From Alphaproteobacteria bacterium (GTDB lineage Bacteria > Pseudomonadota > Alphaproteobacteria > UBA7887), in the NCBI GenBank assembly GCA_965216755.1, contig CBDCGL010000011.1, positions 2,720,001 through 2,784,000 of the forward strand: a stretch of 64,000 bases of DNA, in the 5' to 3' direction. Shown here piece after piece: positions 35,679-59,924 of the stretch; position 1 is the first letter of the stretch; the number at the start of each line of letters is the position of its first letter. The notes under the pieces were generated by a model, which was not told the origin of the DNA, searched no databases, and saw only the letters and a program-made list of their open reading frames with translations. The translations under genes and the position numbers were made by a program.

Positions 35679-35776
35679 TCGAAGGAGAAACTTCGAACCG
35701 CCTCTTTGAAACACTACAAGACTGGGACACCTACCTCAAGGAGAACACTGTCGAGTTCAGGGAGCCTGCACCATGA
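35678..35776 (+). other. Detached 3' segment of the serine recombinase gene (joined in the excised circle)
   Basis: In frame with the shared GCG CAC codons, reads LEGETSNRLFETLQDWDTYLKENTVEFREPAP*. The TGA (35774-35776) overlaps the mobC ATG (35773). Confidence 0.75.
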
Positions 35777-36222
35777 CGCAGCACTCCCAGGATTGGAATC
35801 GCGGCAGCACCTCAAAGGCTTTCACGGACGCGGCGAGGCAAGCCCAATCACAGCCGTATGAAAAACCGGTTCCATTCTCTCTGCGTCTGACGCGCGAAGA
35901 ACGGGCGCAACTGCATGCGCAGGCTGGAGATCAGCCACTCGGTGCCTACATTCGCCACCAATTGCTAGGCGACAAAGCCCAAAAGCGCCGCCGCACACGC
36001 CGGCCCGGAGTCGACCACCAGAAGCTTGCATTGGTACTTGCCGAACTCGGACGTTCGCGGCTCGCCTCCAACCTGAACCAACTTGCCAAGGCAACAAATA
36101 TGGGCACGTTGGACGTATCCGCCGATCTCGAACAGGAGCTCCGTGAGGCTTGCCAGTCCATCGCGGCGATGCGTGAGAAACTAGTCTCGGCCCTGGGCGT
36201 GAAGGTGGAGTCTGGAAAATGA
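35773..36222 (+). CDS. mobC: MobC-like relaxosome accessory protein
   Basis: RHH-like FSLRLTREERAQL..LGAYIR and LAELG...SNLNQLAK motif. ATGA overlap with the relaxase. Confidence 0.85.
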   Translation: MTQHSQDWNRGSTSKAFTDAARQAQSQPYEKPVPFSLRLTREERAQLHAQAGDQPLGAYIRHQLLGDKAQKRRRTRRPGVDHQKLALVLAELGRSRLASNLNQLAKATNMGTLDVSADLEQELREACQSIAAMREKLVSALGVKVESGK

Positions 36223-37511
36223 TACTCGTAGGAAATCAGCGGGGCGGAGCGAAAAGCTTGGCCCTCCATCTGCTGAAAGACGAGAACGATCATGTGGAGG
36301 TGTTCGAACTTCGGGGCTTCGCCTCGGATGAATTGCTCCCTGCACTGAACGAAGCCTACGCCGTGAGCCGGGGCACGCGCTGCAAGCAATTCCTGTTCTC
36401 GCTCAGCTTAAACCCACCGCGTACCGAGAATGTCGAAACGGGCGTGTTTGAGAACGCTATTGACAGAATCGAGGAAAAGCTGGGTTTACAGGGTCAGCCC
36501 CGCGCCATCGTCTTTCATGAAAAGAACGGCCGCCGTCATGCGCATGCGGTGTGGAGCCGGATCGACACAGGTGAAATGAAGGCAGTTCCCCTGCCCTACA
36601 CGAAATTCAGACTGCGGGACATATCGCGTGAGCTTTACCTGGAGCATGGCTGGACCATGCCGCACGGTCTTATGAACTCCGAAGCGCGCGATCCTAAGAA
36701 CTTCACCTTGGCGGAATGGCAACAGGCCAAGAGGATCGGCAAAGACCCACGCGAAATTAAGACCGTCTTCGAGGATTGCTGGGCGGTGAGCGATACGCAG
36801 GCTGCGTTTGCCCATGCCCTAAAGGAGCGCGGCTACGTTCTCGCACGCGGCGACAAGCGCGGTTTCGTGGCGCTCGATTTCCGTGGTGAAGTCCACTCGG
36901 TCTCCAAGCGGGTCGGGATCAAGGCGAAGGACGTGCGCGCCAAGCTGTGCGATGAGGAATCTCTGCCTTCCGTCGATAAAGCCAGAAGCCAGATTGCCGA
37001 GGGCATGGCGGCGCGGCTTCAGGAATTAGAGGGTCAACACCGCAAGACAATTGATGCTCGCACAGCCGCGCTTGAACAACGTTGCAGGACGTTGACGCGC
37101 CAACATGTGGATAAACGACGGGCCATGTCCGAATTCCATGAAGCCCGCCAGCTACGAGAAAGGTGTTTACGCCAGGACCGGTTCCGAAGCGGTTTGCGCG
37201 GCCTCTATGACAGGGTGACAGGGCAGCATAAGAGGATTCGTGAGCGCAATGAGGATGAAGCCTGGCAGGCCCTTTTGCGCGACCGGCGGGAGAAAGATGC
37301 ACTGATATTCCGGCAGCTCGAAGAACGTCGGAACATTCAAGATCGACTTGAAAAACTCAGGTCGCTGAAGTCAGAACGGACAACCGAGCTCAAACGCGAC
37401 ATCGACGCGTACCAGGAGATGAAGGAAGGCGAGCGTGAGAAACTGGAACGTCATCGCAGTGACAAACCACGCATCCAGCGGCGACGGCCCGGCAGAGACC
37501 TGGGGAGATAA
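36219..37511 (+). CDS. Relaxase/mobilization nuclease (MOBP-like)
   Basis: MILVGNQRGG, FSLSLNPP, AIVFHEKNGRRHAHAVWSRID (3-His HUH motif), coiled-coil C-terminus. Confidence 0.9.
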   Translation: MILVGNQRGGAKSLALHLLKDENDHVEVFELRGFASDELLPALNEAYAVSRGTRCKQFLFSLSLNPPRTENVETGVFENAIDRIEEKLGLQGQPRAIVFHEKNGRRHAHAVWSRIDTGEMKAVPLPYTKFRLRDISRELYLEHGWTMPHGLMNSEARDPKNFTLAEWQQAKRIGKDPREIKTVFEDCWAVSDTQAAFAHALKERGYVLARGDKRGFVALDFRGEVHSVSKRVGIKAKDVRAKLCDEESLPSVDKARSQIAEGMAARLQELEGQHRKTIDARTAALEQRCRTLTRQHVDKRRAMSEFHEARQLRERCLRQDRFRSGLRGLYDRVTGQHKRIRERNEDEAWQALLRDRREKDALIFRQLEERRNIQDRLEKLRSLKSERTTELKRDIDAYQEMKEGEREKLERHRSDKPRIQRRRPGRDLGR

Positions 37512-37690: not shown

Positions 37691-37769
37691 GGATCGAAGC
37701 CGCATGGCCGAGACCGCGTATTGCGGGCTCGGTTTACGAGAGCCCGGTCCGGCTTCAGCCGGACGTGCC
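37691..37769 (+). repeat. Structured dispersed repeat, copy A
   Basis: TCGAAGCCGCATGGCCGA...GGGCTCGGTTTACGAGAGCCCG-GTCCGGCT-TC-AGCCGGAC-GTGCC. Confidence 0.85.
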
Positions 37770-39673: not shown

Positions 39674-39712
39674 ATCAGCGGGCTGCCAAATAAGAATTTG
39701 GTTCACGAGTGT

Positions 39713-39792
39713 GGTCGAAGCCGAATGGCCGAAGCCTGACGCAGACGGGGTTCGGTTCACGAGGGCCTGGTCCGGCTTTAGTCGGACGTGCC
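39713..39792 (+). repeat. Structured dispersed repeat, copy B
   Basis: TCGAAGCCGAATGGCCGA...GGGTTCGGTTCACGAGGGCCTG-GTCCGGCT-TT-AGTCGGAC-GTGCC. Confidence 0.85.
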
Positions 39793-39837
39793 CGATGAAG
39801 ATTCGCACGTGATTGACACATCTAGTAGATTGATAGT

Positions 39838-41154
39838 ATGGCATGGGAACACAACAAAGAGCAGTGCCCGCTGGCCGCCGTCGATCGGCGGCTCGAAGAC
39901 GTGCATCGGTTTTGGCACCAAGCGGAGGAAGTCTACTTCGACCCTGACGCCTTCCGTGTTGCCATTCAGGCGGCGATCCAGACCGCGCGGACCGTGACGC
40001 TTGTTCTTCAAAAAAATAAGAATGTCCTCCCCGACTTCGACAAATGGTACGAGCCTTGGCAGGAAAAACTCGGTGCCAACGCGCTTATGAAATGGATGGT
40101 GGAGGCGCGCAATCGCATTGAAAAGCAAGGCGACCTTGACGCGCATAGCTTTGTGAGCGCCGAAATCGTCGCTTCGCACCTGGACGAAGGCCTGCACATC
40201 CAGGTTCCAGCAAGGTTATCCGACGCACCGCTGGCTCTCATAAGAAGCATTCCCGCGAACGCCCTCGGCGAACACATGAAAAAGGACGGCATCTTGAGAA
40301 TCCGCCGCCGCTGGATCGAGAACAGCTTGCCGGACTACGAGCTTCTGGATGCGGTCGCAGATGCCTACGGCCAACTCTCCCAAGTCGTACGCGCCGCGCA
40401 CCGTCAGATGGGCGTCGGCGGTCCGGAGACGACGAACGTGACGACGGGCCAGACTTACCCCGACGGTGATCGCGCTGGGCGCTTGCCGTGCATGATCGGG
40501 CACGAAGACGCACGCACGCTCGACGTTTGGCTGGCGACAGGCGAGCCATTGGAATTCTCAGAAGTACCGCACAAAGTCGATCTATCTAAAGGTCCCGAGG
40601 TGATGAAGCGGTACGGCGTCGAGCCGCAAGAGATGTTTGCAGACAGTGGACTGCCGGAGGACCACGCCCGCACGCTATTCGCCACCGCCCGCAAGATGTT
40701 CGAGAAAGACGGCTACCACATCACGCTGGCGATTCTATTACCCGATGGTAAGCCTGCCGCGTTCCGCGAGCTGCGGCCCGAAGAACACGGTCACAAATAC
40801 ATGATGATGCGCAACCTTGCGCATGAAGCCCAACGCATTGGTGCGGACTCTGTGATCCTCATCAGCGAATCATGGAGCGCGCCCGCTAACCCAGCCAAAC
40901 CCTACATGCGGCCCGTGGATTCACCTGATCGCCGCGAGCTTCTGACAGCGACAGTCGTGTCGAAAGCCGGAGAGCCACTACATCTGTCAGCGGAAATATT
41001 TCGAGAGAAGAACAAGGTTTCGCTAGGCGAGACACACGAGAATAGCGGCGGCTCGCACTACGCCTTCGCGCCATTCTACGAAGTGTGGGGCAAGGAAATT
41101 CCTGCGATCTGGGTTTCCGGGGAACGCACCGCCGATTCTGCTGAAGAGAAATAG
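39838..41154 (+). CDS. Hypothetical protein, 438 aa
   Basis: Long ORF with natural composition lying between repeat copies B and C. No family recognised with confidence. Confidence 0.8.
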   Translation: MAWEHNKEQCPLAAVDRRLEDVHRFWHQAEEVYFDPDAFRVAIQAAIQTARTVTLVLQKNKNVLPDFDKWYEPWQEKLGANALMKWMVEARNRIEKQGDLDAHSFVSAEIVASHLDEGLHIQVPARLSDAPLALIRSIPANALGEHMKKDGILRIRRRWIENSLPDYELLDAVADAYGQLSQVVRAAHRQMGVGGPETTNVTTGQTYPDGDRAGRLPCMIGHEDARTLDVWLATGEPLEFSEVPHKVDLSKGPEVMKRYGVEPQEMFADSGLPEDHARTLFATARKMFEKDGYHITLAILLPDGKPAAFRELRPEEHGHKYMMMRNLAHEAQRIGADSVILISESWSAPANPAKPYMRPVDSPDRRELLTATVVSKAGEPLHLSAEIFREKNKVSLGETHENSGGSHYAFAPFYEVWGKEIPAIWVSGERTADSAEEK

Positions 41155-41213
41155 AACGTCCTTGGCCGCCCTTTAGCACCCGGCACAAAACAGAGTTGCA
41201 TGCGCAACCCTGT

Positions 41214-41269
41214 GGGGTTCGGTTCACGAGAGCCCGACCCTCCGTAGCCGTAACGAAGGAGGGCGCGCC
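41214..41269 (+). repeat. Structured dispersed repeat, copy C (partial)
   Basis: GGGGTTCGGTTCACGAGAGCCCG-A-CCCTCC...GGAGGG-CGCGCC. Confidence 0.75.
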
Positions 41270-41342: not shown

Positions 41343-43013
41343 TTAACGTGCCTTCCAGATTATGAGGCTAGCGAGTGAAAGTATTCGGATCATGTCGATA
41401 ACTTTGTTGTGGTCAAAGCGCAAAAGGCCAAGGTGGGCTCCTTCATTGCGAATGACCCAGAAGGAGAGCAAGGCCCGAACGACCGGATTGTAGGCGCCGC
41501 CCGCCTTGATGCGCGCGATCTGCGCGAGCCTACTCGGCAAAGTGCTCTTGCCCGTATCTACGAGCTTTCCGTAGCGCGTAAATAGAGGGCAGAGATCAAC
41601 CGGCCCATTCACATTAAAAATGCGCCGAAGCTTTCGGGATAAAGTATCACCGCGCGGCTCAAGGCCTCGGTCGATAATCGCTTCATTGGCAATCATCTCA
41701 CATAATGTGGCCATGTTAACGAGTTCGGATGTCGAAGCCGCTCGGTGAATTGGATCGTCCCGCCGCTCCAGATCAACGAGCCGCCGGAAATGCCAGTAAT
41801 ATTGGTAAAGTCCTCTTTCTTCCAACCAATCGCAAAAATGACCTAATTCTGCTTCACTGACCGGAAATGGAGCCGGCAAAGGGCCAAGCGCTTCATCCGC
41901 CCATCGCTTTAGCGAGCGGATCGTCAAGGAGCGCTGCTCTTCCGTCCAGTCGGGATAAACCACTTCAAGTGTAGGTCTGAAATGACCCATGCGCCGTCCT
42001 ACGCGAGCGACTACATCGCGGGGATTAATCGCCGTCGCGCTGCGCAAGAACATGATCGAAGAATGGATGTTGCGCTTGTACTCCTCTGCTACAGCCGCAG
42101 GGCCGACCTTCTGCGCGTTATGCCACCACTCACACTGCTTGCCGATAAAGCTGATCACATCGTCTTCGGATAGTCCGCTTGCGCGAAACGTCTGATCCGC
42201 GATCTCACGTTCGCGTCGCAAATATCGCTGCCATGGCCTGTAGGGTATGCGGCCATGTTGATCGCGGTCGCCTATGAAAGTTTGAAGCGAGTTATGCGCA
42301 TAGGCATGAAAATACCCTACCGCCTTAAAGTGCCGCTCGTACTCTCTAAGCTCACGAAGTTCGCGGTAGCCCTCAATATTGACGCTCTGTTGTGAGCGTG
42401 TCCTTAGCTCGTCAAGAGTTAGCACATTGCCACGCAGGACTTCTGTTCCTAGATGCTCGTCATCAAGCGGATAATAGATATGCACGCCCGAGCGCAGGAT
42501 CGCAGCGAGCCAGAATATTTGCCAGTAGTGATAGAAGCTTGGCGTATCGTGATCGGGGTTCGAAAGGATGGGACCGCCATCAGTTTGATAGAGACGGACG
42601 CGGCGGTCTTCCCATGATGTGAAGCTATCGCGCGAAAACTCCGTCTGGATAAACGGACGATGCGCATCATCGAGCACGTCGAGCGCGTGAATGCTCTCTC
42701 CATAGCGGTGCGCATCGGGCCAGCGCGCGATGGCCTGCATGAGAGAGGCGGCGTCATTAAGGCGCGACCCGTCCGGCTCGATGGGATCGACGATATCGAC
42801 ATGCGGGTAGGTCTCACGGGTGCAACGCCGCAAAATATCCGCAGGCAGATTGATCCGGCACACGGGCGTCAGCAGACCTTCTCTTTCAAGAAACTCCATC
42901 AGCTCCCTTGCAGGAGGATGCGTGCTTAGATCGAGATCAACGGCGTAATCGCACAGTTCTTTTTGACGTATGTAGCGCCGCCCGAATCTGTTTTTTGTTC
43001 TTATTGGCGTCAT
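41343..43013 (-). CDS. Hypothetical protein with C-terminal HEPN-like RNxxxH motif
   Basis: Start taken as ATG 43013 (MTPIRTK), 19 bp after the herA stop. Helical C-terminus with IRNEGAH. Confidence 0.7.
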   Translation of the reverse strand: MTPIRTKNRFGRRYIRQKELCDYAVDLDLSTHPPARELMEFLEREGLLTPVCRINLPADILRRCTRETYPHVDIVDPIEPDGSRLNDAASLMQAIARWPDAHRYGESIHALDVLDDAHRPFIQTEFSRDSFTSWEDRRVRLYQTDGGPILSNPDHDTPSFYHYWQIFWLAAILRSGVHIYYPLDDEHLGTEVLRGNVLTLDELRTRSQQSVNIEGYRELRELREYERHFKAVGYFHAYAHNSLQTFIGDRDQHGRIPYRPWQRYLRREREIADQTFRASGLSEDDVISFIGKQCEWWHNAQKVGPAAVAEEYKRNIHSSIMFLRSATAINPRDVVARVGRRMGHFRPTLEVVYPDWTEEQRSLTIRSLKRWADEALGPLPAPFPVSEAELGHFCDWLEERGLYQYYWHFRRLVDLERRDDPIHRAASTSELVNMATLCEMIANEAIIDRGLEPRGDTLSRKLRRIFNVNGPVDLCPLFTRYGKLVDTGKSTLPSRLAQIARIKAGGAYNPVVRALLSFWVIRNEGAHLGLLRFDHNKVIDMIRILSLASLIIWKAR

Positions 43014-43032
43014 CGCATTGCACTCGCATAGC

Positions 43033-45171
43033 TTAGTCCGGCGGCAAGGCTTCGCCATTTGCCGGTGGGTCTTCGCCTTCGGCCTGCTCCCATGATGATG
43101 CGATAGGAGGCCAGTCTGGAGGCACACCCTCCCGGCGCAGCCAGGTACCCCAGAATTTCGGATCATCCGAACGCGGACGTTGTGGCCTCTGCAGATCACG
43201 AATGCGAATAAGCACAGGTGTTGGCACGGCCCACCCGAGAAGAATGGCCTGTTGCGAGGGAAGAGTTGGAAGTTCGCCGAGAAGCCCGCCCAGAGCATCG
43301 GGAACCAGGCGGCGGACTAGATTCTGGTCTACATCATTGACGATACGGTGAAGCAGGAACGAATTGCACTGCGCGAGCACGGTTGGTGAAAGCTCTAATG
43401 GGCGCTGCGAGGCAAGAACCAAGCCCAACCCGAATTTGCGCCCCTCTCGTGCGATACGCTCAAATGTCTGACGGCACAACTCAGAGGCTTGCGCGCTGGC
43501 ACCGACATCGGCGTCCCGGCGCACAAAACTGTGCGCTTCTTCGAGCACAACGACCGTGGGCAAAGAAGCATCATTTTCTTTGATGTGACGCTGCAACGCC
43601 TCGAAGATCAGGCGGGATATGACAGCAATAGCAATATGAACGACATCCGAAGGAACAAGCGAGAGATCGAGGATAACAAGCGGTTCCTGATTGCCTTCTA
43701 CCGGCCCTAGAAGACTATTGAGCCATGAGCCAAGCGAATCGGCACCCTCGGTGTCGATCACGGGGCGGAGCCCTGCATCGCCAAGCATAACCTGTATTCG
43801 GTTTATGAGCGGCTCAACATTGTTCAGCGCCTGCCCACCCGTTGCCATGGCAACGTCGTGGATGCGGTCGGGAAGCGCGGCGACATCAAAGCGAACGGGC
43901 GCATCCTCACTGATTTCGCCGTGCGTTGCTGCGATGGAAAAGGCGTCGGTAATCGTGCGGAGCTGTGCTAGTACGATTTGCACATCGGCTGGCTGAAAAT
44001 CGTTGTAGCCAGAGGAGTTTTGTGATGTCCAGTGGCGGCGCGCGCGCACTTGTTCAATCGGATCACGAATGGCGATAATGGCGTCTTTCAGATCAGCCGC
44101 GTCCGCGCCGTACTCTTCCAAGGTTGCCTCGTCGGTCTCGCTCAGCCCGAGAAGTCCTTCGAGCAATGATCCAAAATCACGATTCTGGGGAAACCCGGCG
44201 ACGCTTTGGGGCAATTCGGCATAAAGTTGTTCTACTTGACGCACATAGCCGTTGTAGCGGCGAGTGGCTTGCACACTTGCCGTCATTGCTGATGAGCCGG
44301 CGTTACGCAATTGCCGCAGCGCTCTTAGGAGTAAGGGGCGTTGCACTCCGGGTTGTGCGGAAGTGAAGGCAGCCCATTCCTGTCCGTTCCAGAGCCAGCC
44401 GGGCACAGTGAGTGGACGTATATCACCCTGACCGCCAACGGAAAAGCGCCGCACAGGCAATGTCCCATCGTTAAACGCCTGCGCATATTCGCCGTTGGGA
44501 TCAAGGATTATGAAGCGGGCGTTGGCAGGCTCGCCATTTTGCCCGTCCGGCTGGGCCGCCTTAGCGCTTTCCAGAGACCAGCGCACGATGCCTGCGACCG
44601 AGCACGACTTGCCGCTTCCGGTATTGCCCAGAACGGCAAGATGCCTACCAAAGAGTTTATCGGGATGGACCCACACGCGGGCGTTGCCTGCAAAAGGCGC
44701 CGTTCCGATTTGAATGAGTCTATCATCGGTCTTGGCTTCGACAATCGAGCGCAATTGGATAGCGCTCGGAAGGAGAACAGGATCGCCAACTGAGGGTAAA
44801 ACCGGAACACCGCGTTCAAGAGAGTAAAGCGGCTGGCCGTCTTCATCCTCGCCTTCGCGGAAGAGCGTCCCGAAGGGGATGGCAATCACGGTGCGGGCCG
44901 GAAAGGGAAGATCGACAAGCGCTTCATCCTTTTTACCGTTACCAGGCCTTGCGCGGACGATGGAGATTTCCTTGATAGCCGCAACGACAGCTCCGGTCTC
45001 ATTGGGAACCAGAACGTAGGCGTTTACTCGCGGAAAACCTGTCGGCGTGCCAGTATTAAGCGCTGTAGCCTGCGGCGTTTCGTTGAAAAGTGCGATACGT
45101 AGCTCGTCCGCTGTGACTGTTTCGACCCTGCCAACAGAGAGCGTTCCGATACGCTCGACAATCGTAGTCAT
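43033..45171 (-). CDS. HerA/FtsK-family ATPase (anti-phage HerA type)
   Basis: HAS-barrel-like N-terminus, RHLAVLGNTGSGKS, ILDPNGEY, VLEEAH, RIAREGRKFG, SQRP, QCNSFLLHR. Confidence 0.93.
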   Translation of the reverse strand: MTTIVERIGTLSVGRVETVTADELRIALFNETPQATALNTGTPTGFPRVNAYVLVPNETGAVVAAIKEISIVRARPGNGKKDEALVDLPFPARTVIAIPFGTLFREGEDEDGQPLYSLERGVPVLPSVGDPVLLPSAIQLRSIVEAKTDDRLIQIGTAPFAGNARVWVHPDKLFGRHLAVLGNTGSGKSCSVAGIVRWSLESAKAAQPDGQNGEPANARFIILDPNGEYAQAFNDGTLPVRRFSVGGQGDIRPLTVPGWLWNGQEWAAFTSAQPGVQRPLLLRALRQLRNAGSSAMTASVQATRRYNGYVRQVEQLYAELPQSVAGFPQNRDFGSLLEGLLGLSETDEATLEEYGADAADLKDAIIAIRDPIEQVRARRHWTSQNSSGYNDFQPADVQIVLAQLRTITDAFSIAATHGEISEDAPVRFDVAALPDRIHDVAMATGGQALNNVEPLINRIQVMLGDAGLRPVIDTEGADSLGSWLNSLLGPVEGNQEPLVILDLSLVPSDVVHIAIAVISRLIFEALQRHIKENDASLPTVVVLEEAHSFVRRDADVGASAQASELCRQTFERIAREGRKFGLGLVLASQRPLELSPTVLAQCNSFLLHRIVNDVDQNLVRRLVPDALGGLLGELPTLPSQQAILLGWAVPTPVLIRIRDLQRPQRPRSDDPKFWGTWLRREGVPPDWPPIASSWEQAEGEDPPANGEALPPD

Positions 45172-46448
45172 GCCGCCCCGCCTTCGCAGTCAGGCTCTCC
45201 CTGGCCCGTCTTTCCCCGCCGTTCAACCAGTTCACTCATTCGAATGGTTAGCGGATCAATGGCAGGCTTGGGCAGATAGTGTGCGACAAGCTGAGCAATA
45301 TCGCCGAAGTGTTTGCCAAGAAGGAGCGTGAGTTGCTGCGGCCTTCCAGCGCGCTCCACAAATGCAGAAACTCTTTCATGCGGCTTTTCACCCCAACCGA
45401 GAATGACGAGGTGCGTAGACGGGATCGTCAGCATGTCCCCGATAACTCTGTTGATGTGGTCGTCGCCAAAACCGAAGCCATAGCTTACAAGAACGTTGTT
45501 CGGCTGGCAGATTGATGATGAAAAATCGCGGAAGAGATCGGCATAGGGATAGGCAGCCGTCTCTACGTCCTTGACCGCATTGGGATAGATCATCACCGAG
45601 TTGCGCGGGCTATCAGGCACCGCAGGATGCGTTGCGTCTGCACCAAAGGGCAGGCCCGTGCGGTAAAGGCGCGGTTGTTCGTAGCGCCAGTCGAGCGAAC
45701 CGTGAAGCTTTGTAAAATGCATCACGCCTTCAAGATGGCGGGGCTCACCGCGAATACCCGGCGGCGTGTAGTGCATATCGATGTGCAGACGGGATGATCT
45801 GAATTCCGGGTCAAGTGCACCAATAAATCGGTCGATGATGCGAAGCCCGGCATGATCGCAGCCATGTTCAATCAAGCGGTCATAGTTGGTGGTAAATATG
45901 TGTAACCTTTCTCGCGATGCTGCGCGGCTGGCAAAACTCATCAGGAAGGAAACTAGAATCTCACTTGGCGAAGGCCCGCCAGCGGCGGGCACCGTGTTCA
46001 AGCCGTCGGCGATGCCTTTCTCAGTCGCAAGCACGTCCTTGATGAATCCGCCAAGCACATTGTCGATTGCCGCTTCCCAGGCAGGAGCGTCCTCATGTTC
46101 GAGAATTTGCAGACCGGCGAGAAGCGCGAGCGCGGCAGAAATTTGGTCTTCAATATTGGCGCTGCCACGCCCCATGCCTTCGGCCATCTTCTTCGCGTGC
46201 GCGTTAACCTTCTCCACGCCTTCGCAATCAAATTCGGCCTCGGCCATGGTGACGGGCGCGGCACCGGCTTGAACAGCAATGCCGGTGGTAAAGCCATTGC
46301 CGAGAAGAAGGGACAGGTGTTCGGCTTGAAAGACAGCTGACAGCCATGGCTCGATACGTCTGCGCCATGCGCCCGTATCACTAGCCGGGTCTTCGGGAAC
46401 GTGCGTCTCACCACCGATATGAACGATATGATCATGATCCCAATTCAT
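45168..46448 (-). CDS. SIR2-like (SIR2_2) protein
   Basis: [41 protein letters not shown] overlaps with both neighbours. Confidence 0.9.
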
Positions 46449-47182
46449 GACCTTGCCGCCTCCGCTGCCACATGGCCTGCGAGCTCGCTGACAAAGGTCC
46501 GAAGGCCGGTCATTTCGCTAAGGTCTGAGTATTCGCCGGTACCGGCGCCGTTGCGCGGCGATATGATGACCGACGCCGCCGTGTAGAGTTGCTCCTGCAC
46601 CAACTTACGACACAAGATGTTGTAACGGTCGGCATAGGACGCAGTCTCAAATTCAGCAAAAACCGGAAAATGCGGTGAGATATCCTTGACCGGCGCGCGT
46701 GATTTCGGGGCATCCTCGAGCAACATGAGCCAGCCAACAAAGGGCCGCGGCTGTTCGCCGAATGCGCCTTCGCGATAGGCGGTCCACAGGTCGTGGGCAT
46801 TGCCGATGGCCTCTTCGGTCCGGTTGTTGAAATTGTTGCCGAATGACGGACCGACTTGGCTCTTGAACTCCAGCACCGCGACCAAATGGCCCCGATTCAT
46901 TACGAGCAGGTCCCACTGCTTCGTTGGCCGAAAATAACCCGGAAGCGTCACGACCCGGCGCTTTCTGTGGATGTCTGCGAGACCGAGACCGTTGGCGCGC
47001 ACGATCTCCACGACCAGCGCGACGAACCCATCCATATTCTTGCCCGCCGTGACACCAGCGCGCTCGCCCTGATCTGCGTTGCCTGACTCGATTTGTTTCT
47101 GACGGGCCTGCTCACGATTGCCCCAGAACGCCTGAACAGCCTCGCGCGCCTTTTGTTCGTAATTTGCCAGATCAATCGCCAT
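46445..47182 (-). CDS. Type II restriction endonuclease, PaeR7I/XhoI family (predicted CTCGAG)
   Basis: [52 protein letters not shown], closely resembling R.PaeR7I as I recall it. Confidence 0.9.
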
Positions 47183-47193
47183 GCCCGTCTTTC

Positions 47194-48921
47194 TTATGCG
47201 TTTCCGTTTCCTCCGAGTGCGGCCCTCTCATCCTTGGACAAGCGATAGAGCTTGAATGCCGCCTTGTTGCAGGCCTCCGTATCACCGCGTTGTGCCGCCT
47301 TGATTAGCGCGCCCTTGATATCGGCAGGCACGTCCTGCCAGCGCGGCAGGCGAATTCGCCGCAGGTATTGCGCCTGAAAGCGGAAATAGCCACCCCGCAT
47401 CTGCGTTGAGTAGATCGAAACGAACAATCGTGCAATCCCTGATTGCAGCACAGACTGCAAAGCCTTCAAGTCCCATTTATCGGACGTGATGAAATAAAGA
47501 TTGTGGTGCGGGTAAAGCTTGCCGTCCTCATAGACGATATGGGCTTCACCCTTGATGTCGGGGATGAGCAGCTTCGGCTTGGTGGCGAGTACCGGGTAAA
47601 TCCGGTCAATGGTACGATACCAGTTTGCCGGTGCTTTTTTTGCAATATGCCGTTTGGCGATCTTGTCCTTGCGCGCTTCCAGATAGGCGCGCAGCTTGGG
47701 GTAGTTGCCGAGATCAACAAGCCCGACTTCATCGGCGAACGGATTGACGATGCCAAGCCCACGCCATTTGACCTCGCCGCTCAAGATATCGCGCGTCATG
47801 ACCAGCGGCAGCTTGCGGTCCGGCTCCACGTCAAGTTCGTCGAAGGGGCCGATAAAAGCCTTGTCATTGCCGGTTGCAACACCGATCCCGACCTTGCACC
47901 CGGCTTCTTCGATAAGCGGAAACTCGCTTTCCAGCCTGCGCACAAGGGCAAGCTGATCCGGGGATTCGAGTATCCAGGGTTCCGTTCCCGCCGCGACCCC
48001 CGCTAGCTCTTTGACAACGGAATCCGGACCCGGCACGTGTTTGGAAAGCAGCTGTTTGCCTAATGATCGCAGCGCTTTGTGGCTAATCCCCGGGCGGCGC
48101 GCGATGCGGGTCTTTCCCGGCTTTTCGTTGGCGATGATGGTAATGGCCGGATAAGCGATCACATCCGCATGGAAAGCAGGCGTATTCACCATGTCCACAT
48201 AGACCTTCAAGTGAAAACGCTCGGCAACAAGCTGCCGAAGCTGCCTGCCATAACGGTTCTTCATCCACCTGTCGGCGCAGATGAAACCGAGCGCGCTTTT
48301 TGTGCGAAGCAGATTCAGTGAGCGCTCGATGAAGGGGATATAGAGGTCGGCCCTGTCGAAGATCGTTTTGTACCGTGCACGGTACTCTGCCATCAGAGCG
48401 TCCGGAATAAGTTCCTGCCGAACGTAAGGTGGGTTGCCAACTACGTAGTCGAATGCGTCGGGTATGGGTGTGAGAAGAAAATCCCCACATACCAGCCAGG
48501 TATTTGTGAGACGCTCCGCATCACGATACTTTATCCCAGCTTCTATGAGCTGCGTGACAACGCGTTTACGCGTTGCTGAAAACGTGCTCTTGTGAAGCTC
48601 AACCGCTTTGATGCTGTCTTTGAGGCTCTCGAACGCATTGCCCTTTCCGCGGTGTCGCCGCCATGCTTCGAGCAAGCGCTCGACGATGATCAGAAGAAAA
48701 TCCCCCTCGCCAAATGAGGGCTCTAGGAGGCGGCGCTCGAATAGAGGCTTGTTGGGCGTGTAGCCCAAGAGGTCGAGAATGAACTCTACAACTTCGCGGC
48801 GCGTGTAGATTGCGCCTCGTTCTTCAATACCGGCAACAGCAAGATCTTTTAATGCATCCTCAACCGGACACATACCTGGAATCGACATCTGGCGGAGCTG
48901 AGGGTGTGCTGGTTCCGGCAT
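47194..48921 (-). CDS. N6-adenine DNA methyltransferase, gamma class (M.PaeR7I/TaqI-like)
   Basis: [11 protein letters not shown] (motif I), VVGNPPYVR (motif IV), ADLY..FIE, TaqI_C-like KLLIPDIK. Confidence 0.93.
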
Positions 48922-49142
48922 CAATAAGTCTCTCCCGCTTTGGCCTGTTCCAATTCGCCGAGAGTCACCTCGATGGTCCCGCCATTCCTGTGACGCTGCA
49001 AAAACTCGCGCATGGATCGTCGAATGAGCCAGGAAGCCGTGACTTCGCTGTTCCGGGCCAGTTTGTCGAACGCGGCGTAGTCATCCGGATCGACCGTCAC
49101 CGTAATTCGCTTCATCGGCTTAAGTATTTTACGCTTCGGCAT
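48921..49142 (-). CDS. Ribbon-helix-helix (CopG-like) regulator
   Basis: [28 protein letters not shown]. Its TGA overlaps the methyltransferase ATG. Confidence 0.78.
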
Positions 49143-49566
49143 AGTTTGCATATCTCTGATGCATAGTTTCATAGCGCATAATACCATATCTGCGACGATT
49201 TAAAAGAAGGCATACCAAATCTGGGGGTGCAAATCGCTGTAAGCCGCGCAGCTCGCCGCATTCAAGAAAGGTTCCAGGTTATGCGCTAACGGCGATCCGT
49301 TCGTCGATGGGGTCCAGGGGAGAGCTGACATCTCCCCGGTCTCGATGAAATCGTCATGGGGTTTTCAGGGGAGCAGGAACGCGCCCTTGAATGGCGATGA
49401 AACAGCCACTCGTTTCTGCATGGTCCGGTGCAGGTGGAGAGGCATGTCTCCAGGTCCTGCGAGTGATTGACCGGCGATACGGTCTGCTGGCGCATGAAGG
49501 CTCGATGCCAGGCATGCGCCATGGGCCGGGGGGATGCAACGGGGGCGCGCTAGCGGGCCCCCTTGC

Positions 49567-49599
49567 CGAGATGGCGTTGTAGTACAACGCACATCTTGC
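49567..49599 (+). other. Candidate oriT
   Basis: Inverted repeat GCGTTGT-AGT-ACAACGC (49574-49590) immediately followed by ACATCTTG/C, resembling the MOBP nick consensus YATCCTG/Y. Confidence 0.4.
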
Positions 49600-49661
49600 G
49601 CGCGCGCTAGTTCTGTTGCGCTGGTCTGTTGCGCGCGCTAGTCCTGTTGCGCCGGTCTGTT
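49600..49661 (+). repeat. 31-bp tandem direct repeat (2 copies, 2 mismatches)
   Basis: GCGCGCGCTAGTTCTGTTGCGCTGGTCTGTT / GCGCGCGCTAGTCCTGTTGCGCCGGTCTGTT. Confidence 0.9.
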
Positions 49662-49739
49662 GTTGGTTTCGGTGCAGCGCGGGGTCACGCGGTAAATTCG
49701 GCTGAATTCATACGGCAATGCAGAATAGGGTCATCTTAG

Positions 49740-50888
49740 ATGTCAGCCTCACCTGAGAACTTCGACCTGTTCAAACGCTTCGCAAGGGAGCGCCTACAGG
49801 CTTCAGCCTTTCATGCCGACGGTGAGAAAGACAGTGAATATCTTTTTCACGCGTCGTTGAACTCCACCGATGCTCTCATGGCCTGGGCGGCCGGTGCGAC
49901 GAACCGTTGTGGCGAAACCTTTGAAGTAATTCCAGGATTTGTCGATATCTATCGTCCCAATGCATTTGCGGACCGTTTTGAAAGCAAGTATTTCCTCGGT
50001 ATGTATTCTGCCATGTTCGTTGCCGTTGCTGAGTTCGCTATGTATTGCATGACTCAATCTGACTTCATGAGCGGCATTGGCAGAGCCGAATTGGAGACAT
50101 CTCCGTCACCTGAAGACAGTCACGCACCTGGCCTTTGGCTCATCAACCGCACGAAGATGGGTGGGCGTGTGCATGAACGACACAGCCAAAAACTCACGCC
50201 ACGGTGCGACATCCGATATCAGACTTCAATCTATCTTTGTTTATTAATGGCTCGATTTGCCTGGCTGCATGAAATGGCTCATGCGTTTAACGGACATGTC
50301 GCCTACACGTCCGCAAACGGCATGTCTTCGCGCATTAATGAAGTCGCAGAACCGCATGCTTTGGTCGAATATGATCTCGGTCAGGATAAGGAGGATGAGA
50401 AAGCGCGGGTAATGCGTTGCCTAGAATTCGATGCCGACCAATCCGCTTTTTGGGCCAGCATTAATATACAGATTCGTGACTTGGAAAACATCGAAGGAAT
50501 TCGTGCCATCGACCAAACCACGCGTCTATCCTTAGCTCTGTTCGGCGCCTACGCGATGACTTGGTTGTTTGGTGAATTTCAGGCGGAGTGCGGTTCGGTC
50601 AAGAATTTCACGCACCCTGAGCCGCATCTCAGGCTACAGAACCTAATCAAGGTTGGAACAGACCGGGTTGTGCCTTTGGTCAATGGTTTTGATGAGATCA
50701 ACACGCAAGTTTGCCGAGAGTTCGATGCTATTCGTAATTCGATTCCGGGGATCTTTCTGCCCGGAGACCTTCTGTCGGAAAGCGGCAATCGCCAAATTCA
50801 AATCGCACTGGCGGAATCTCTCGATCAGGTTAAGGCCATGCAAGAGGCGCTGCAGGCCTATCAATTTAGCGAAAAAGAGAGTCGATAA
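49740..50888 (+). CDS. HExxH zinc metalloprotease, Lit/peptidase U49-like
   Basis: PNAFA, WLHEMAH..NGH, LEFDAD, THPEPHLRL. Confidence 0.7.
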   Translation: MSASPENFDLFKRFARERLQASAFHADGEKDSEYLFHASLNSTDALMAWAAGATNRCGETFEVIPGFVDIYRPNAFADRFESKYFLGMYSAMFVAVAEFAMYCMTQSDFMSGIGRAELETSPSPEDSHAPGLWLINRTKMGGRVHERHSQKLTPRCDIRYQTSIYLCLLMARFAWLHEMAHAFNGHVAYTSANGMSSRINEVAEPHALVEYDLGQDKEDEKARVMRCLEFDADQSAFWASINIQIRDLENIEGIRAIDQTTRLSLALFGAYAMTWLFGEFQAECGSVKNFTHPEPHLRLQNLIKVGTDRVVPLVNGFDEINTQVCREFDAIRNSIPGIFLPGDLLSESGNRQIQIALAESLDQVKAMQEALQAYQFSEKESR

Positions 50889-50914: not shown

Positions 50915-51709
50915 TTACTCTACCTTCAGCTCCAAGAGGAAAAGGCACCTGCGAGATTTTGGTTGAGAGGCGTAGAACGTCGCGGCTCTGTCCAAAAGGG
51001 ATTTATCGAAAGCGACGCGATCCTGAAACGCCGAACGTAAATCCACGGGCGTAGGTTCAGCGGTTTGCATCACAACAAACCGGTGAGTGCCGCGATCCCG
51101 TACCTCACGCATGAAGACGGGCCTGCCTGACGCTTCATTGAGCCCAGGCAAATATATGGACCGGCTTTCGGCCTCGAATGTCGCCGCAAGGCCGCCCCAG
51201 GTTTGTTGAACGTTTTGCATGGCCAAAACGTACTGACCATGCAGAGACGACCTGAAGACGACCCTAAACCATTCATTGAGTTTGATAACTGCGTCTGGCT
51301 CAGGGGCATCGCCGACCGGTTCCGACTCGACCAGTTCCATGTTCGACCGATCTGCGCGAATGATGCTGCCGGCGTCGTTGATCGCTTCATCCTCGATAAG
51401 CCCGGCAAGCGATATTGTCGGCGCAGCTCGAAACTCGCTTTCAAGTTCGGATGCCGGTCCAAGAATCAGCTTGCGGACTTCGTCGTCAGGGCGATGGGCG
51501 GGGAGCGCACTGGAGAAAAGGTCCACAAGTTTTTGAAAACTGCCCTTTGGCACCGCGTTAGGCTCTCTATTGGCGGCACCGTCTGCCCACCACTGGATCG
51601 TCTTGGGTGATTTGCCGAGCGCGACTGCAATAGCGTCCCAATCCGAATAACAGCCGTAAGCGATCAGAATATTTAGCTTCTTCCGGAGCTCGGGCACGCT
51701 GACCGCCAT
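50915..51709 (-). CDS. Hypothetical protein with N-terminal HTH-like and C-terminal beta-rich domains
   Basis: WDAIAVALGKSPKTIQWW HTH-like segment. GAGG RBS. Confidence 0.7.
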   Translation of the reverse strand: MAVSVPELRKKLNILIAYGCYSDWDAIAVALGKSPKTIQWWADGAANREPNAVPKGSFQKLVDLFSSALPAHRPDDEVRKLILGPASELESEFRAAPTISLAGLIEDEAINDAGSIIRADRSNMELVESEPVGDAPEPDAVIKLNEWFRVVFRSSLHGQYVLAMQNVQQTWGGLAATFEAESRSIYLPGLNEASGRPVFMREVRDRGTHRFVVMQTAEPTPVDLRSAFQDRVAFDKSLLDRAATFYASQPKSRRCLFLLELKVE

Positions 51710-53995: not shown

Positions 53996-54877
53996 ATGGC
54001 CAGTTTTGGAGGCTACAGACGGCGCGACCCTATAAGCCGGGCGTTGCTCATATCAGGGATTATCATCATTCCAGGCCTGGCGATTGGAGCGACAACTTGG
54101 GGTGTAAGCCGGGTCGCTGACATTGAACGGATGGACCGGGAAACTTTTTGCTACAGGCAAGATGAACAAGCGCACACGGGATTCATGATCGATGCATCTT
54201 TTGATAGCATCACAAGTGAACGGCAAAAGCGCGACTTGCGCAATGCGTTGATCGGCGCTTTTGAAAATATGGAGCCTAACGGACAGCTCTCGGTCTTCAC
54301 GACCGCCAAGGACAAAATCGGCACTTTTCTGGTACCGGTGATCCGTTTTTGCCGCCCCATGCGAACCTTGGACGAACAGACGCAGGTTGGCGTGGCCAAA
54401 CAGACGCAGGCTTATCTATCTCGTCATTATGAAGAGGCCCGACGCCTTTTCATTGGCCAGGTTGATGAACTGATAGCCAAGGCTGCGGACCCTGAGCGAC
54501 AAGCCGATCACAGCCCGATTATGGAGCAAGTTCAGTCACTTTCGCACCATGGCTTTTCAGGGCGGCTACGCAAGATGGTCATCTACACGGATGGTCTGCA
54601 AAACAGCGAGGTACGACGGTTCTGCTTGGTAAAAGGTCATTTGCCGAGCTTTGAGAGGTTCAGCCAACATTCCGATTACAGGCTGGTGCGCCCTGGTTCA
54701 CTGGCAGGCGTGGATATCGAAATCCTTTTGGTCGAGCATACGCTTTTCCCGTCAAAGGACTTGAAGTTCTGCACTAACAATGAAATCCGCGCCTTTTGGA
54801 CGGGATATTTCGAGGCAGCGGACGCGGCCTCCGTGCAGATGATCCGTCTGCCTTATGGCGGGCTGGGCCGGTCGTGA
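53996..54877 (+). CDS. Membrane-anchored hypothetical protein with vWA/MIDAS-like motifs
   Basis: N-terminal TM, FMIDASFDS, VIYTDGLQNS. AGGAG RBS; GTGA overlap with the T4CP. Confidence 0.65.
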   Translation: MASFGGYRRRDPISRALLISGIIIIPGLAIGATTWGVSRVADIERMDRETFCYRQDEQAHTGFMIDASFDSITSERQKRDLRNALIGAFENMEPNGQLSVFTTAKDKIGTFLVPVIRFCRPMRTLDEQTQVGVAKQTQAYLSRHYEEARRLFIGQVDELIAKAADPERQADHSPIMEQVQSLSHHGFSGRLRKMVIYTDGLQNSEVRRFCLVKGHLPSFERFSQHSDYRLVRPGSLAGVDIEILLVEHTLFPSKDLKFCTNNEIRAFWTGYFEAADAASVQMIRLPYGGLGRS

Positions 54878-56637
54878 CGTACGGATCAAATAGAGGCGGA
54901 GGCAACGTAGAGGGGCCGAGTTTCCTGGTACTGTTGGCCGTTGCGGGCGGCCTGATCTGGCTTTCCATCCATCTTGGGCCGCCCATGGTGCAGGGACAGC
55001 TTCGCCCGCTCCCGGCGCTAGTCTTCTTCGTCGCCGGTATCATGCTGCTTCGCCTCGCCATTCGCGGATTGGAACTGTTGGCCTGCCTGATCGACTGGCA
55101 GAGCAGCCGAACCCCAACGGGAAAGGATGGCCTGGCCGCATGGGCGAGGAAGAACGATTACAAGGCGGAATTGCGCGAGGCGAATGGCGGGCCGTTCTGG
55201 GGCCTGAGCCTTGGTCGCAAACCGGCACCACTCTTCATTGACTACGTATCCAATGCGATGACTGTCGCGCCTGCCGGATCAGGAAAAGGCATCTGCACAG
55301 TCGTTCCGAACGGCATGAGTATCCGCGCCAGCAAAGCCTTTGCGGATTTCAAAGGCGAGCTTGTCTGCATGCTCAAACAGCCGCTGGAAGCGCGTGGGGA
55401 AATCGTACGTATACTCAATCCCGGAGGCCTGTGGGAAGAAACAATCGGGCCAAGCGAGCTCTATAGCCCACTCGATATTCTTGCGGATGATCTGAACCGG
55501 CCTGGTGGCTTGCGCGATATCCCAGACGATCAGCGCGAGATGAATAATCAAATCCTCCCCGAGCCGAGTGAGCGCGAATCAGAGAATTCCTATTTTAGGG
55601 AAGGTTCAAGGCGGCTGATGGCGGATGCCGAGTTGATGGAGGTGATGGTCGATGAATATGACGCCACATTCTCCTCGGCCGCGCTACTGATTGAAGACCG
55701 TCAGCGGCTGGAGGACATGGCGCGATGGATGGCCGGAGTCGATTTGGACGGGAAGCCCCACCCGGGCGGACCGTTTCCGATTGAGCAAACACCGTGGGCA
55801 GCGAAGCACGATGTGCGCGATGTGGCGGAGTTTGCACAGCTTGTGCGCGCGCGAGCCCACAATCTCCTGGCGTTAGCGACTGCGGACGATTCGCGGACGT
55901 TCGATTCCTTCATTACTGGAGCACAGCAAGCCCTTGCACCATTCGCGTTTGGCCGCATCGCACCTTGCATGGGCCGTTCGACGTTCAGCATGGACGAACT
56001 GAAGCAGGGTGACCATCCGACCAACCTATTTATCGTTGCCGATGCAAGCCGTATGGAAGCATACAAGCCTTTCATCGGGTTAATCCAATGGTGCTGCATG
56101 ACCGCGATCAAGCGCCATAATAACAAAGAGCGACCGGTCTATTTTATCTTAGATGAGGCCACTAACTATAGAGTCAGCGGCCTGGAGAGCCTTCTGACCT
56201 GGGGGCGGTCTTATGGGCTCCGGCTACACGTCATTTTCCAGGACTTTGCCGCATTTGAACGGATCTATGGAAAGACCGCATTGGACACGCTGCTCAGCGA
56301 GACCGAAATCAAACAGATACTGCCGGGGCAGCGCTCACCGAAAACCTTGGAACTAATCTCCAAGAAGATGCTTGGGGATCAATCGATCATGGCTGCAAGT
56401 ATCGGACGCGATAATCACTTGTCCGGACTCAGAGAGACTATGAGCGAGACCGGCCGGCCCTTGATGACGATGGACGAACTTAGACGCACTGACAAGGGAT
56501 TGCTGTTTGTCCGGCGCTGCAAACCGATCCTTTTCGAACCTGTTTCTTATGCGGAAATTTCGCCCTGGCGCGATCAGGTTGGGATCAATCCCTACTTCGG
56601 CAAACCATACCGGAAGAAAGTAAAGCTGAGACTCTGA
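54874..56637 (+). CDS. Type IV coupling protein, VirD4/TraG family
   Basis: Two N-terminal TMs, APAGSGKG, DFKGE, ILDEATN, GRSYGL..IFQD. Confidence 0.9.
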   Translation: MTYGSNRGGGNVEGPSFLVLLAVAGGLIWLSIHLGPPMVQGQLRPLPALVFFVAGIMLLRLAIRGLELLACLIDWQSSRTPTGKDGLAAWARKNDYKAELREANGGPFWGLSLGRKPAPLFIDYVSNAMTVAPAGSGKGICTVVPNGMSIRASKAFADFKGELVCMLKQPLEARGEIVRILNPGGLWEETIGPSELYSPLDILADDLNRPGGLRDIPDDQREMNNQILPEPSERESENSYFREGSRRLMADAELMEVMVDEYDATFSSAALLIEDRQRLEDMARWMAGVDLDGKPHPGGPFPIEQTPWAAKHDVRDVAEFAQLVRARAHNLLALATADDSRTFDSFITGAQQALAPFAFGRIAPCMGRSTFSMDELKQGDHPTNLFIVADASRMEAYKPFIGLIQWCCMTAIKRHNNKERPVYFILDEATNYRVSGLESLLTWGRSYGLRLHVIFQDFAAFERIYGKTALDTLLSETEIKQILPGQRSPKTLELISKKMLGDQSIMAASIGRDNHLSGLRETMSETGRPLMTMDELRRTDKGLLFVRRCKPILFEPVSYAEISPWRDQVGINPYFGKPYRKKVKLRL

Positions 56638-57859: not shown

Positions 57860-58199
57860 GTGAATCAGACAGACAAAAAGAGAGAAAGGAGAGCACACAG
57901 GCAGACAGGAAATGCCGCCCCCGCGGACTCGCTTGACCTTGATCCCCACGAATATCGGGAGCACCTGGAAGGTTTGCACCTAACTGAAGCCGAGGAAAAT
58001 GAGCTTCTGCTGGCGCTATGGTCCATTATGAAAGCCTTTGTCGACTTGGGTTTCGGGGTAGATTCTATCCACCATTTTTTCCCGGCGCTTGGGCCAAATT
58101 CTACGCAAGCTTCGCCGGAAGCGTTAGAATCAAACGATCGGAAATCTGCTCGTCAGTCAGAGGAAGGCAGTTTTGATCCGGCGAGAAAGATGGTGGGCC

Positions 58200-58213
<14 letters not shown>
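57860..58213 (+). CDS. Small hypothetical protein overlapping the recombinase start
   Basis: [27 protein letters not shown] helical core. Overlaps the recombinase 5' end. Confidence 0.65.

Positions 58214-59924
<1,711 letters not shown>

Follow-up and report, generated by a model that had tools for sequence, protein, structure and literature searches.

Several described systems resemble parts of the gene array considered here. SIR2-HerA is an abortive system that depletes NAD+ (PMC11514289, PMC13434337); in the portions of the papers available to us it is treated as a two-gene system with no third gene described, and it functions as a cloned two-gene unit (PMC11472057, PMC13434337). PrrC and RloC act as a back-up to restriction (PMC1484252, PMC3458546, PMC2610378), and PrrC is recognised by a constant genetic linkage to a restriction-modification (R-M) locus (PMC3458546). 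The Rx4-6H signature of HEPN ribonucleases (RNases) is cited in the DARNA preprint (10.64898/2026.02.22.705581), where DARNA is described as an HEPN RNase domain with R117x4H122 joined to a domain of unknown function. In the type VII toxin-antitoxin pair HepT/MntA, MntA neutralises HepT by adenylylation (PMC7641770). The subject of this study is a 64,000-nt stretch from an Alphaproteobacteria bacterium (contig CBDCGL010000011.1, positions 2,720,001 to 2,784,000; hereafter the window), in which six consecutive minus-strand genes at 41343-49142 combine a ribbon-helix-helix (RHH) gene, a PaeR7I-type R-M pair, a SIR2-HerA pair and a sixth gene of an uncharacterised family. We consider it likely that these six genes form a stacked composite defence island, carried as cargo of a mobilizable element, and not one integrated machine.

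The open reading frame (ORF) list of the window gave the following array, in the direction of reading:

48921-49142, minus strand: RHH gene, 73 aa, head of the array
47194-48921, minus strand: methyltransferase (MTase) gene, its ATG overlapping the RHH TGA by one base (TGATG)
46445-47182, minus strand: restriction endonuclease (REase) gene, 245 aa, after an 11-nt gap from the MTase gene
45168-46448, minus strand: SIR2 gene, 426 aa, in ATGA overlap with the REase gene
43033-45171, minus strand: HerA gene, 712 aa, in ATGA (4-nt) overlap with the SIR2 gene
41343-43013, minus strand: sixth gene (G6), 556 aa, after a 19-nt gap from the HerA gene

A sequence-only reading of this stretch had described six minus-strand genes with TGATG, 11-bp, ATGA, ATGA and 19-bp junctions, all of which were recovered from the ORFs. 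It had also judged that the genes look like one transcript, and co-transcription is indeed likely, because the junctions are tight and the genes co-directional. Its six gene identifications were supported, the sixth as HEPN-like by motif with no family match, and its description of SIR2-HerA as an NAD+-depleting abortive system agrees with the literature cited above. An upstream-extended version of the sixth ORF (651 aa), which would overlap HerA by 266 nt, was set aside as unsupported, because 29 aligned relatives start at the same Met region. None of the 11 opposite-strand or alternative-frame ORFs within the array had a Pfam match.

The MTase matched the Pfam families Eco57I (1.1e-23), TaqI_C (1.9e-7) and N6_Mtase (3.4e-6), as well as PADLOC MTase_II (PDLC03313, 2.7e-254), and the NPPY motif of N6-adenine methylases was located at residue 163, inside the Eco57I domain match (154-248). 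The protein is predicted to be a Type II N6-adenine DNA methyltransferase resembling M.PaeR7I, with an Eco57I-type catalytic and a TaqI_C specificity domain. The REase matched Pfam XhoI (PF04555, 7.3e-98) over model positions 1-190 of 191 and PADLOC REase_II (1.6e-116), and was 71.7% identical to a gene annotated paeR7IR on plasmid pRSB105. Hence the array holds the combination that characterises PaeR7I/XhoI Type II R-M systems, a PF04555 endonuclease adjacent to a methylase of the cognate type. In tblastn comparisons with nine plasmid PaeR7I loci, the MTase was 56-65% and the REase 60-72% identical to its counterparts, and the order of methylase and endonuclease (M-R) was common to all. XhoI and PaeR7I recognise CTCGAG. 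The same specificity may be presumed for the REase of the array from its 71.7% identity; CTCGAG was under-represented across the window (5 sites, one of them within the REase gene at 46715, versus 15.6 +/- 3.45 expected from shuffles), a depletion that is consistent with this specificity and not specific to it.

The first protein of the array matched Pfam RHH_1 (7.5e-9), a ribbon-helix-helix family of CopG type, and is probably a transcriptional regulator. No RHH homologue adjoined any of the nine plasmid PaeR7I R-M loci in tblastn searches. The best plasmid homologue (37% identity) was found in a separately fetched locus (L024, 5001-10195), directly ahead of an HmaA helicase gene (PADLOC E = 0) and a DUF1156 gene, which suggests that this type of RHH protein recurs at the head of defence operons based on methylation.

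For the SIR2 protein, matches to PADLOC SIR2 (PDLC04079, 6.2e-175, residues 20-416) and to Pfam SIR2_2 were obtained. Its N188 (in TTNYD) and H249 (in KLHGS) lie in blocks that align with the solved Nezha SIR2 (8j4u_A), and their spacing of 61 residues equals that of N226/H287, the catalytic dyad of SaSir2 (PMC11514289), so that the catalytic Asn/His dyad is present. HerA matched PADLOC HerA (PDLC04098, 3.8e-251, residues 1-695) and Pfam DUF87 (1.2e-17), carries a Walker A motif, GNTGSGKS, at 182 and a Walker B-type string, VVVLEE, at 540, and matched the HerA chains of solved SIR2-HerA complexes (9c1m, 8xau, 8wiv, 8j4u). Adjacent SIR2 and HerA-type ATPase genes on one strand, overlapping by 4 nt, define the pair as SIR2-HerA. 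The NCBIfam equivalog cut-offs were not reached (SIR2_antiphage 108.4 bits versus 500; HerA_antiphage 201.5/168.7 versus 800/850); because the PADLOC subfamily models matched nonetheless, the pair is best regarded as a divergent clade of the known system. No three-gene SIR2-HerA and no R-M-coupled SIR2-HerA was described in the abstracts and main-text passages covered. A preprint on synergy between defence systems (10.1101/2022.08.21.504612) gives several co-localised pairs of R-M and other systems, and a term search of its main text, as available, did not find 'HerA'.

Relatives of the three modules were collected in 28 loci (nine genome contigs and 19 plasmid stretches, designated by L numbers), against which all six window proteins were run by tblastn. 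The sixth gene was represented by the nine genome contigs, with relatives 38-67% identical, and by three plasmids with distant relatives (~25%); SIR2-HerA was represented by seven plasmids (41-57% identity), and PaeR7I-type R-M by nine (56-72% identity). Twelve loci contained the sixth gene only, seven SIR2 and HerA only and nine MTase and REase only, and no locus contained two modules. Thus SIR2, HerA, MTase and REase were found in none of the 12 loci of sixth-gene relatives, R-M or the sixth gene in none of the seven SIR2-HerA loci, and SIR2-HerA or the sixth gene in none of the nine R-M loci. Pfam and PADLOC scans of the neighbours of sixth-gene relatives reported no R-M gene either. When the whole array was compared with plasmids by blastn, none of the 207 matching records covered more than 27% of it, and the matched part was the R-M pair. 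Matches were found in 648 plasmid records for HerA, 111 for the REase and three for the sixth gene; these three showed no SIR2-HerA within 5 kb. The abundances also differed in a large protein collection, where a word-indexed search returned 48 clusters related to the sixth protein, as compared with at least 6028 for HerA at E<=1e-100 and at least 7978 for the REase at E<=1e-40. As a proxy for linkage, equal sizes of the longest contigs printed for relatives of two genes were counted; between relatives of the sixth gene and of HerA there were none among 47 x 118.

The sequence-only reading had proposed an integrated, layered guard of the Type II R-M with the 556-aa gene as a third component of SIR2-HerA. 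Neither proposal was supported, given that no two modules met in the 28 loci and no sixth-gene locus held SIR2 or HerA; the independent assortment of the modules across genomes, which the same reading had named, beside purely additive action, as the outcome that would count against it, is what these loci displayed.

Several observations weigh against the view of a mere stack. The context sample for SIR2-HerA and R-M consisted of plasmids only, at 41-57% and 56-72% identity, and both the closest relatives, on metagenome contigs, and HerA proteins 77-84% identical in named genomes lie outside the inspected loci. Relatives of HerA and of the REase shared two longest-contig sizes, versus 0.56 expected by chance. 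One of these coincidences (1757 bp) was rejected, as a contig of that size is too short for both genes; in the other, HerA relative P0225 (78%) and REase relative P0380 (80%) were both assigned 16351 bp. Similarly, sixth-gene relative P0005 (66%) and REase relative P0360 (82%) were both at 2725 bp, with 0.35 such coincidences expected by chance. The R-M may therefore be linked again, in one close relative each, to SIR2-HerA or to the sixth gene, which would fit inheritance of the island without overturning the general independence. The junctions (two ATGA overlaps, 11- and 19-nt gaps) are tighter than mere neighbourhood, and, together with the lack of a promoter-like site between the RHH and HerA genes, argue that the genes are at least expressed together. 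The GC content at third codon positions (GC3) was 0.64-0.69 in the RHH, MTase and REase genes and 0.575-0.585 in the remaining three (SIR2, HerA, sixth gene), as compared with 0.75-0.77 in three core genes on the flanks. These values fit a foreign origin of the array, possibly a mosaic one, and the equal GC3 of the last three genes would fit a shared history. Finally, the HEPN assignment of the sixth protein rests on its motif, no HEPN model having been matched.

The sixth protein matched no family in Pfam, PADLOC or NCBIfam and no PDB sequence, and a PDB profile search gave only an irrelevant match (E 0.45). A tblastn search of 50,697 phage records was likewise negative. A profile search of 1.84 billion representatives retrieved 355 proteins at E<=1e-3, 227 of them at <=1e-10. 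Among the 150 matches listed, the full-length members were nearly all ~500-610 aa long, two with N-terminal extensions, and the rest were shorter fragments. The protein is the founding member of this uncharacterised family of ~550 aa. An alignment of 115 diverse full-length members, whose identity to the window protein ranges from 15 to 77%, showed E439, R522 and H527 as the only invariant residues (115/115). N523 was kept in 91 of the 115, and H109, D112, Y161, W164 and Q165 in 108-112. The C-terminal features are located as follows:

41346..41771, minus strand: HEPN-like C-terminal ~140 aa of the sixth protein (residues ~415-556), with E439 at 41697-41699 and with R522/H527
41433-41450, minus strand: Rx4H string RNEGAH, residues 522-527

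The sequence R522-N-x3-H527, 30 residues short of the C-terminus, represents the conserved Rx4-6H motif of the HEPN superfamily; no described HEPN family model matched the protein. A crude hydrophobic-moment scan favoured helical periodicity in 103 of 137 windows. A Walker A pattern was not present, and neither the AAA_13 (Pfam) nor the PrrC (PADLOC) model matched. The protein is thus to be called HEPN-like by motif only, and its tentative assignment as an HEPN-type RNase effector has, in our judgement, a chance slightly short of even.

Among the competing explanations, the one that fares best holds that the sixth protein is neither an HEPN nuclease nor a defence protein, having some other cargo or maintenance function with its RNxxxH in a different type of site. 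In its favour, no HEPN model from Pfam, NCBIfam or PADLOC appeared among the weak matches of 30 close members at E<=10 or among the matches of 73 distant members at E<=0.01, and in the latter the region common to the family matched no Pfam domain convincingly; the lack of a PDB sequence match and the position of all sixth-gene loci on or near mobile elements point the same way. We nevertheless regard it as unlikely. An E, an R and an H that are invariant in 115 members down to 15% identity, mostly with an N after the R, are the pattern expected of an HEPN-type active site, and recognised defence genes are immediate neighbours in seven of 13 loci including the window.

These neighbours were SoFic in three loci, AbiE, Gabija, a TIR effector-like gene and, in the window, SIR2-HerA. 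A SoFic-type Fic gene (PDLC03963) was found directly upstream on the same strand in L001 (1.3e-51), L002 (9.3e-27) and L007 (2.3e-21), and a complete AbiEi-AbiEii pair (PDLC02290, 2.1e-119) upstream in L004. An initial reading of the latter as AbiEii without an antitoxin was rejected once an AbiEi homologue was found there. No credible upstream partner was seen in L005, L006 and L008, and the short ORFs that precede the gene in L004, L006 and L008 seem to be off-frame artefacts. The distant plasmid relatives lie beside Gabija (L018), beside the TIR effector-like gene (L017) or alone (L019). By guilt by association, the neighbours point to a defence or toxin role for the family, and because they vary to this extent, the sixth gene is not tied to SIR2-HerA. 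As a separate observation, an 84-aa RHH/HicB-like (YlcI/YnfO-type) gene at 11656-11910 of L006 overlaps the stop codon of the sixth-gene relative by 4 nt; no other member of the family was seen coupled to a small putative regulator or antitoxin.

The same neighbourhoods bear on a second alternative, in which the upstream enzyme (a Fic AMP-transferase, the AbiEii nucleotidyltransferase or SIR2) would silence the HEPN-like site of the sixth protein covalently and infection would release it. SoFic or AbiEii stood directly upstream on the same strand, at gaps of 30-118 nt, in four of the eight genome loci with upstream DNA, and control of an HEPN RNase by AMPylation has a precedent in HepT/MntA (PMC7641770, PMC13000451). 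We give this explanation only a slim chance, as there is no such partner in L005, L006, L008 or on the three plasmids, and each upstream system is complete and is known to function by itself, as in the AbiEi-AbiEii pair of L004 and in SoFic. SoFic is a single-gene system. Moreover, the three Fic proteins do not form one clade, that of L007 being only 28-31% identical over ~100 aa to the other two. No better than this slim chance is a broader joint proposal, according to which the sixth protein would exemplify a novel class of RNase effectors of HEPN type that form a last line behind varied complete systems and are functionally coupled to them, the operon being a three-tier unit. The effector would then be kept silent by a nucleotidyl- or ADP-ribosyl-transferase reaction of the upstream system, or set off once a phage has disabled SoFic, AbiE, SIR2-HerA or the PaeR7I R-M.

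The plasmid PaeR7I loci show what can follow this type of R-M. A PDC-S06 AAA_13 ATPase gene lay directly downstream of the REase in L015 and in convergent orientation in L013, where it comes after a gene resembling a pPIWI-associated nuclease; a ThsB-like TIR protein was encoded downstream in L014. The archetypal cassette of IncP-type plasmids was found in three loci that represent one lineage:

L016, 2674-7688: archetypal PaeR7I cassette, IncP-type plasmid
L028 and L029, 3674-8688: archetypal PaeR7I cassette, IncP-type plasmids

Its order is invertase-M-R, followed by hypothetical proteins of 82 and 274 aa and then by a 274-aa Abi_C protein with the string RNNKSLAH. Abi_C, which is listed as an Abi family, is presumably a member of the HEPN clan of Pfam. 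Nothing defence-like was seen downstream of the REase in L025, L026 and L027. The PDC-S06 ATPases were considered as HEPN proteins and not counted, their C-terminal tails having no common Rx4-6H string. The slot behind a PaeR7I-type R-M thus often holds a second-line gene, the types found there being unrelated to one another. Since a second-line gene of variable type often follows such plasmid cassettes, the layering seen in the array is generic; of the layered arrangement proposed earlier, this general part stands and the specific guarding of this R-M does not. A literature search for a link between PaeR7I and abortive infection gave a single match, which was unrelated.

This guarding, in which SIR2-HerA and the HEPN-motif protein would monitor the Type II R-M as PrrC does EcoprrI and fire when restriction is inhibited, can draw on the tight junctions and the probable single transcript, on the abortive-type genes often found downstream of PaeR7I-type cassettes, on the possible second co-occurrence of REase and HerA on a 16351-bp contig, and on PrrC itself, which its linked R-M enzyme keeps latent and an anti-restriction factor of a phage activates (PMC1484252, PMC3458546). 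We hold it to be very improbable. Besides the absence of any two-module combination from the 28 related loci, the sixth protein lacks an NTPase domain (no Walker A) and does not match the PrrC model, the partners downstream of PaeR7I R-M (PDC-S06, ThsB-TIR, Abi_C or none) are mutually unrelated, and SIR2-HerA functions as a cloned two-gene unit (PMC11472057, PMC13434337). The least probable explanation, that the sixth gene was an HEPN-type back-up of the PaeR7I-type R-M until SIR2-HerA was inserted between REase and sixth gene, is suggested by the shared 2725 bp of P0005 and P0360, which would leave room for both genes only if they abut, and by the RNNKSLAH-bearing Abi_C protein of the archetypal cassette; against it stand the chance expectation of 0.35 for such coincidences, the absence of MTase and REase from all 12 loci of sixth-gene relatives, the GC3 that places the sixth gene with SIR2-HerA and not with R-M, and an hhalign probability of 0.28% between the family profile and the Abi_C protein. 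The corresponding hhalign values for the 274-aa gene beside the Abi_C protein and for the 262-aa upstream gene of L003 were 0.14% and 0.28%.

In the preferred reading as a stacked composite island, three modules, each self-sufficient elsewhere, would be packed in one co-directional and probably co-transcribed array. The RHH-headed PaeR7I/XhoI-type R-M would cut unmethylated incoming DNA. SIR2-HerA, by homology, would form a HerA-SIR2 complex that depletes NAD+ on infection and is thereby abortive (PMC11514289, PMC11472057, PMC13434337). The sixth protein would act as an autonomous effector whose C-terminal ~140 aa, with the E...RNxxxH set, would most likely be an HEPN-type RNase, kept silent by the ~410-aa N-terminal part until a trigger is sensed. 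The phage phenotypes to be expected would be layered, with restriction first and abortive defence second. Such layering would be the generic advantage of systems that are stacked, transferred together and jointly regulated by one promoter and the RHH protein, and would imply no dedicated molecular coupling between the modules.

The setting of the array is that of a mobile element. Between ~36 and 60 kb of the window, the GC content drops to 0.50-0.59, from 0.61-0.69 outside, and the following landmarks were identified:

35773..37511, plus strand: NikA-like accessory protein and MobA/VirD2-type relaxase, left island end (Relaxase 3.6e-13)
54796..56637, plus strand: VirD4/TraG-type coupling protein (Pfam T4SS-DNA_transf 4.3e-30, TraG-D_C 2.2e-21)
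58173..59924, plus strand: large serine recombinase, right island end (Resolvase 2.4e-23, Zn_ribbon_recom, Recombinase)
59713-59789, minus strand: tRNA-Arg(CCG), within the 3' portion of the recombinase ORF

The NikA-like match in Pfam (1.2e-5) was below its curated cut-off, as was the match of the coupling protein to NCBIfam conju_CD1115 (6.5e-31). Because mobilization genes are present and no mating-pair genes were seen in the island (35700-59950), it is read as an integrative mobilizable element of ~24 kb with the six genes as cargo. The position of the tRNA-Arg gene suggests integration at or into a tRNA gene, with the element supplying part of the tRNA. This tRNA was the only Rfam match in 35-60.5 kb and the only match of the whole island to plasmids by megablast. 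The ORFs at 39838-41154, 49740-50888, 50915-51709, 52555-53982 and 53996-54877 had no Pfam, PADLOC or NCBIfam match. The convergent neighbour of the array (39838-41154, 438 aa) had only hypothetical relatives, on scattered plasmids, and the divergent neighbour (49740-50888) no plasmid relative. A repeat of ~90 nt with a hairpin occurs in full copies at ~37690-37790 and ~39710-39810, between plus-strand island genes, and a 21-nt core copy lies at 41214-41234, just downstream of the sixth gene.

Signals that could control the array were sought by a consensus scan and, upstream of the RHH gene, by eye. The stretch between the RHH gene and HerA contained no sigma-70-like site; the region had two such sites, versus 5.1 expected, both of them within the sixth gene. 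Terminator-like sites were at chance level across the region (13 versus 9.6 +/- 3.0 expected). Two features deserve mention:

41153..41172, minus strand: terminator-like hairpin with a T-rich tail, in the convergent intergenic region ~170 nt past the sixth gene (consensus scan)
49139..49169: 9-mer AAACTATGC (minus-strand reading), two exact direct copies 22 nt apart, around the RHH start

The AAACTATGC repeats may be an operator, and the string TGGTATTAT at 49186-49178, upstream of the RHH gene, resembles an extended -10. A single transcript of all six genes from one RHH-controlled promoter is plausible. In the long divergent intergenic region upstream of the RHH gene (49188-49739), which had no Rfam family match, a 31-nt unit is repeated in tandem at 49600-49661, and there are several GC-rich palindromes.

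Both the R-M and the SIR2-HerA module are textbook cases, and what the array mainly illustrates is the packing, by mobile elements, of several defence systems into a single unit of transcription; its novelty is limited to the uncharacterised HEPN-motif family and the particular stacking of known systems. That unannotated family of ~550 aa (355 representative clusters), with an invariant E/R/H set and recurring directly behind complete abortive systems, is a candidate single-gene defence or toxin. The slot downstream of PaeR7I-type R-M is recurrently filled by differing second-line genes and, if a census confirms this, would be a place to seek new defence genes.

Compared with known systems, the R-M part of the array is closest to the PaeR7I/XhoI cassette, with which it shares the M-then-R order, the Eco57I/TaqI_C methylase and the XhoI-family endonuclease. 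It differs from the invertase-headed archetype in being headed by an RHH gene, and its downstream slot holds SIR2-HerA and the sixth gene, whereas other PaeR7I cassettes hold Abi_C, a PDC-S06 ATPase, a ThsB-like TIR protein or nothing.

The SIR2-HerA pair resembles Nezha in its adjacent, overlapping genes with full-length PADLOC matches, N/H dyad and Walker motifs, the phmmer E-values against the Nezha chains (6.7e-20 for SIR2, 3e-31 for HerA) indicating a divergent clade. Its seven plasmid relatives are flanked by AbiEi/AbiEii (L010, L012, L020), by Type I R-M and an AAA ATPase (L011), by a Type IIG enzyme and a CapP-like peptidase (L021) or by nothing notable (L022, L023). Unlike these, the pair of the array is translationally coupled to an upstream REase and is followed, 19 nt on, by an extra gene. 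Two of the relatives, on rhizobial/methanotroph plasmids (L010 6001-13114, L011 6001-13130), show SIR2-HerA followed by an SbcD-like phosphoesterase with a 4-nt overlap, in a string that also has a ~1256-aa SbcC/Rad50-like ATPase; this is possibly a four-gene SIR2-HerA variant, recalling HerA with Mre11/Rad50.

Like PrrC-EcoprrI and RloC, the sixth gene encodes a nuclease motif and is linked to R-M genes, the shared idea being a back-up that acts once restriction is blocked. PrrC, however, carries an N-terminal ABC-type NTPase and belongs to a Type I locus, whereas the sixth protein has neither Walker A nor a PrrC match and lies beside a Type II R-M; R-M linkage is absent from 12 of 12 loci of its relatives, so that neither the constant linkage nor the NTPase fusion that mark PrrC is found. 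With HepT/MntA it has in common an HEPN-motif gene beside a nucleotidyl- or AMP-transferase (Fic or AbiEii) in four of eight genome loci, but the window and at least six other loci of the family lack the transferase, and a typical HepT is about four times smaller. The single-protein HEPN abortive effectors (DARNA/PD-T7-3, ApeA, AbiF/AbiD) are likewise similar, as large proteins with an Rx4H site and a large non-catalytic domain in defence islands; the sixth protein stands apart from them in matching no PADLOC model and in its C-terminal motif, which in DARNA is N-terminal.

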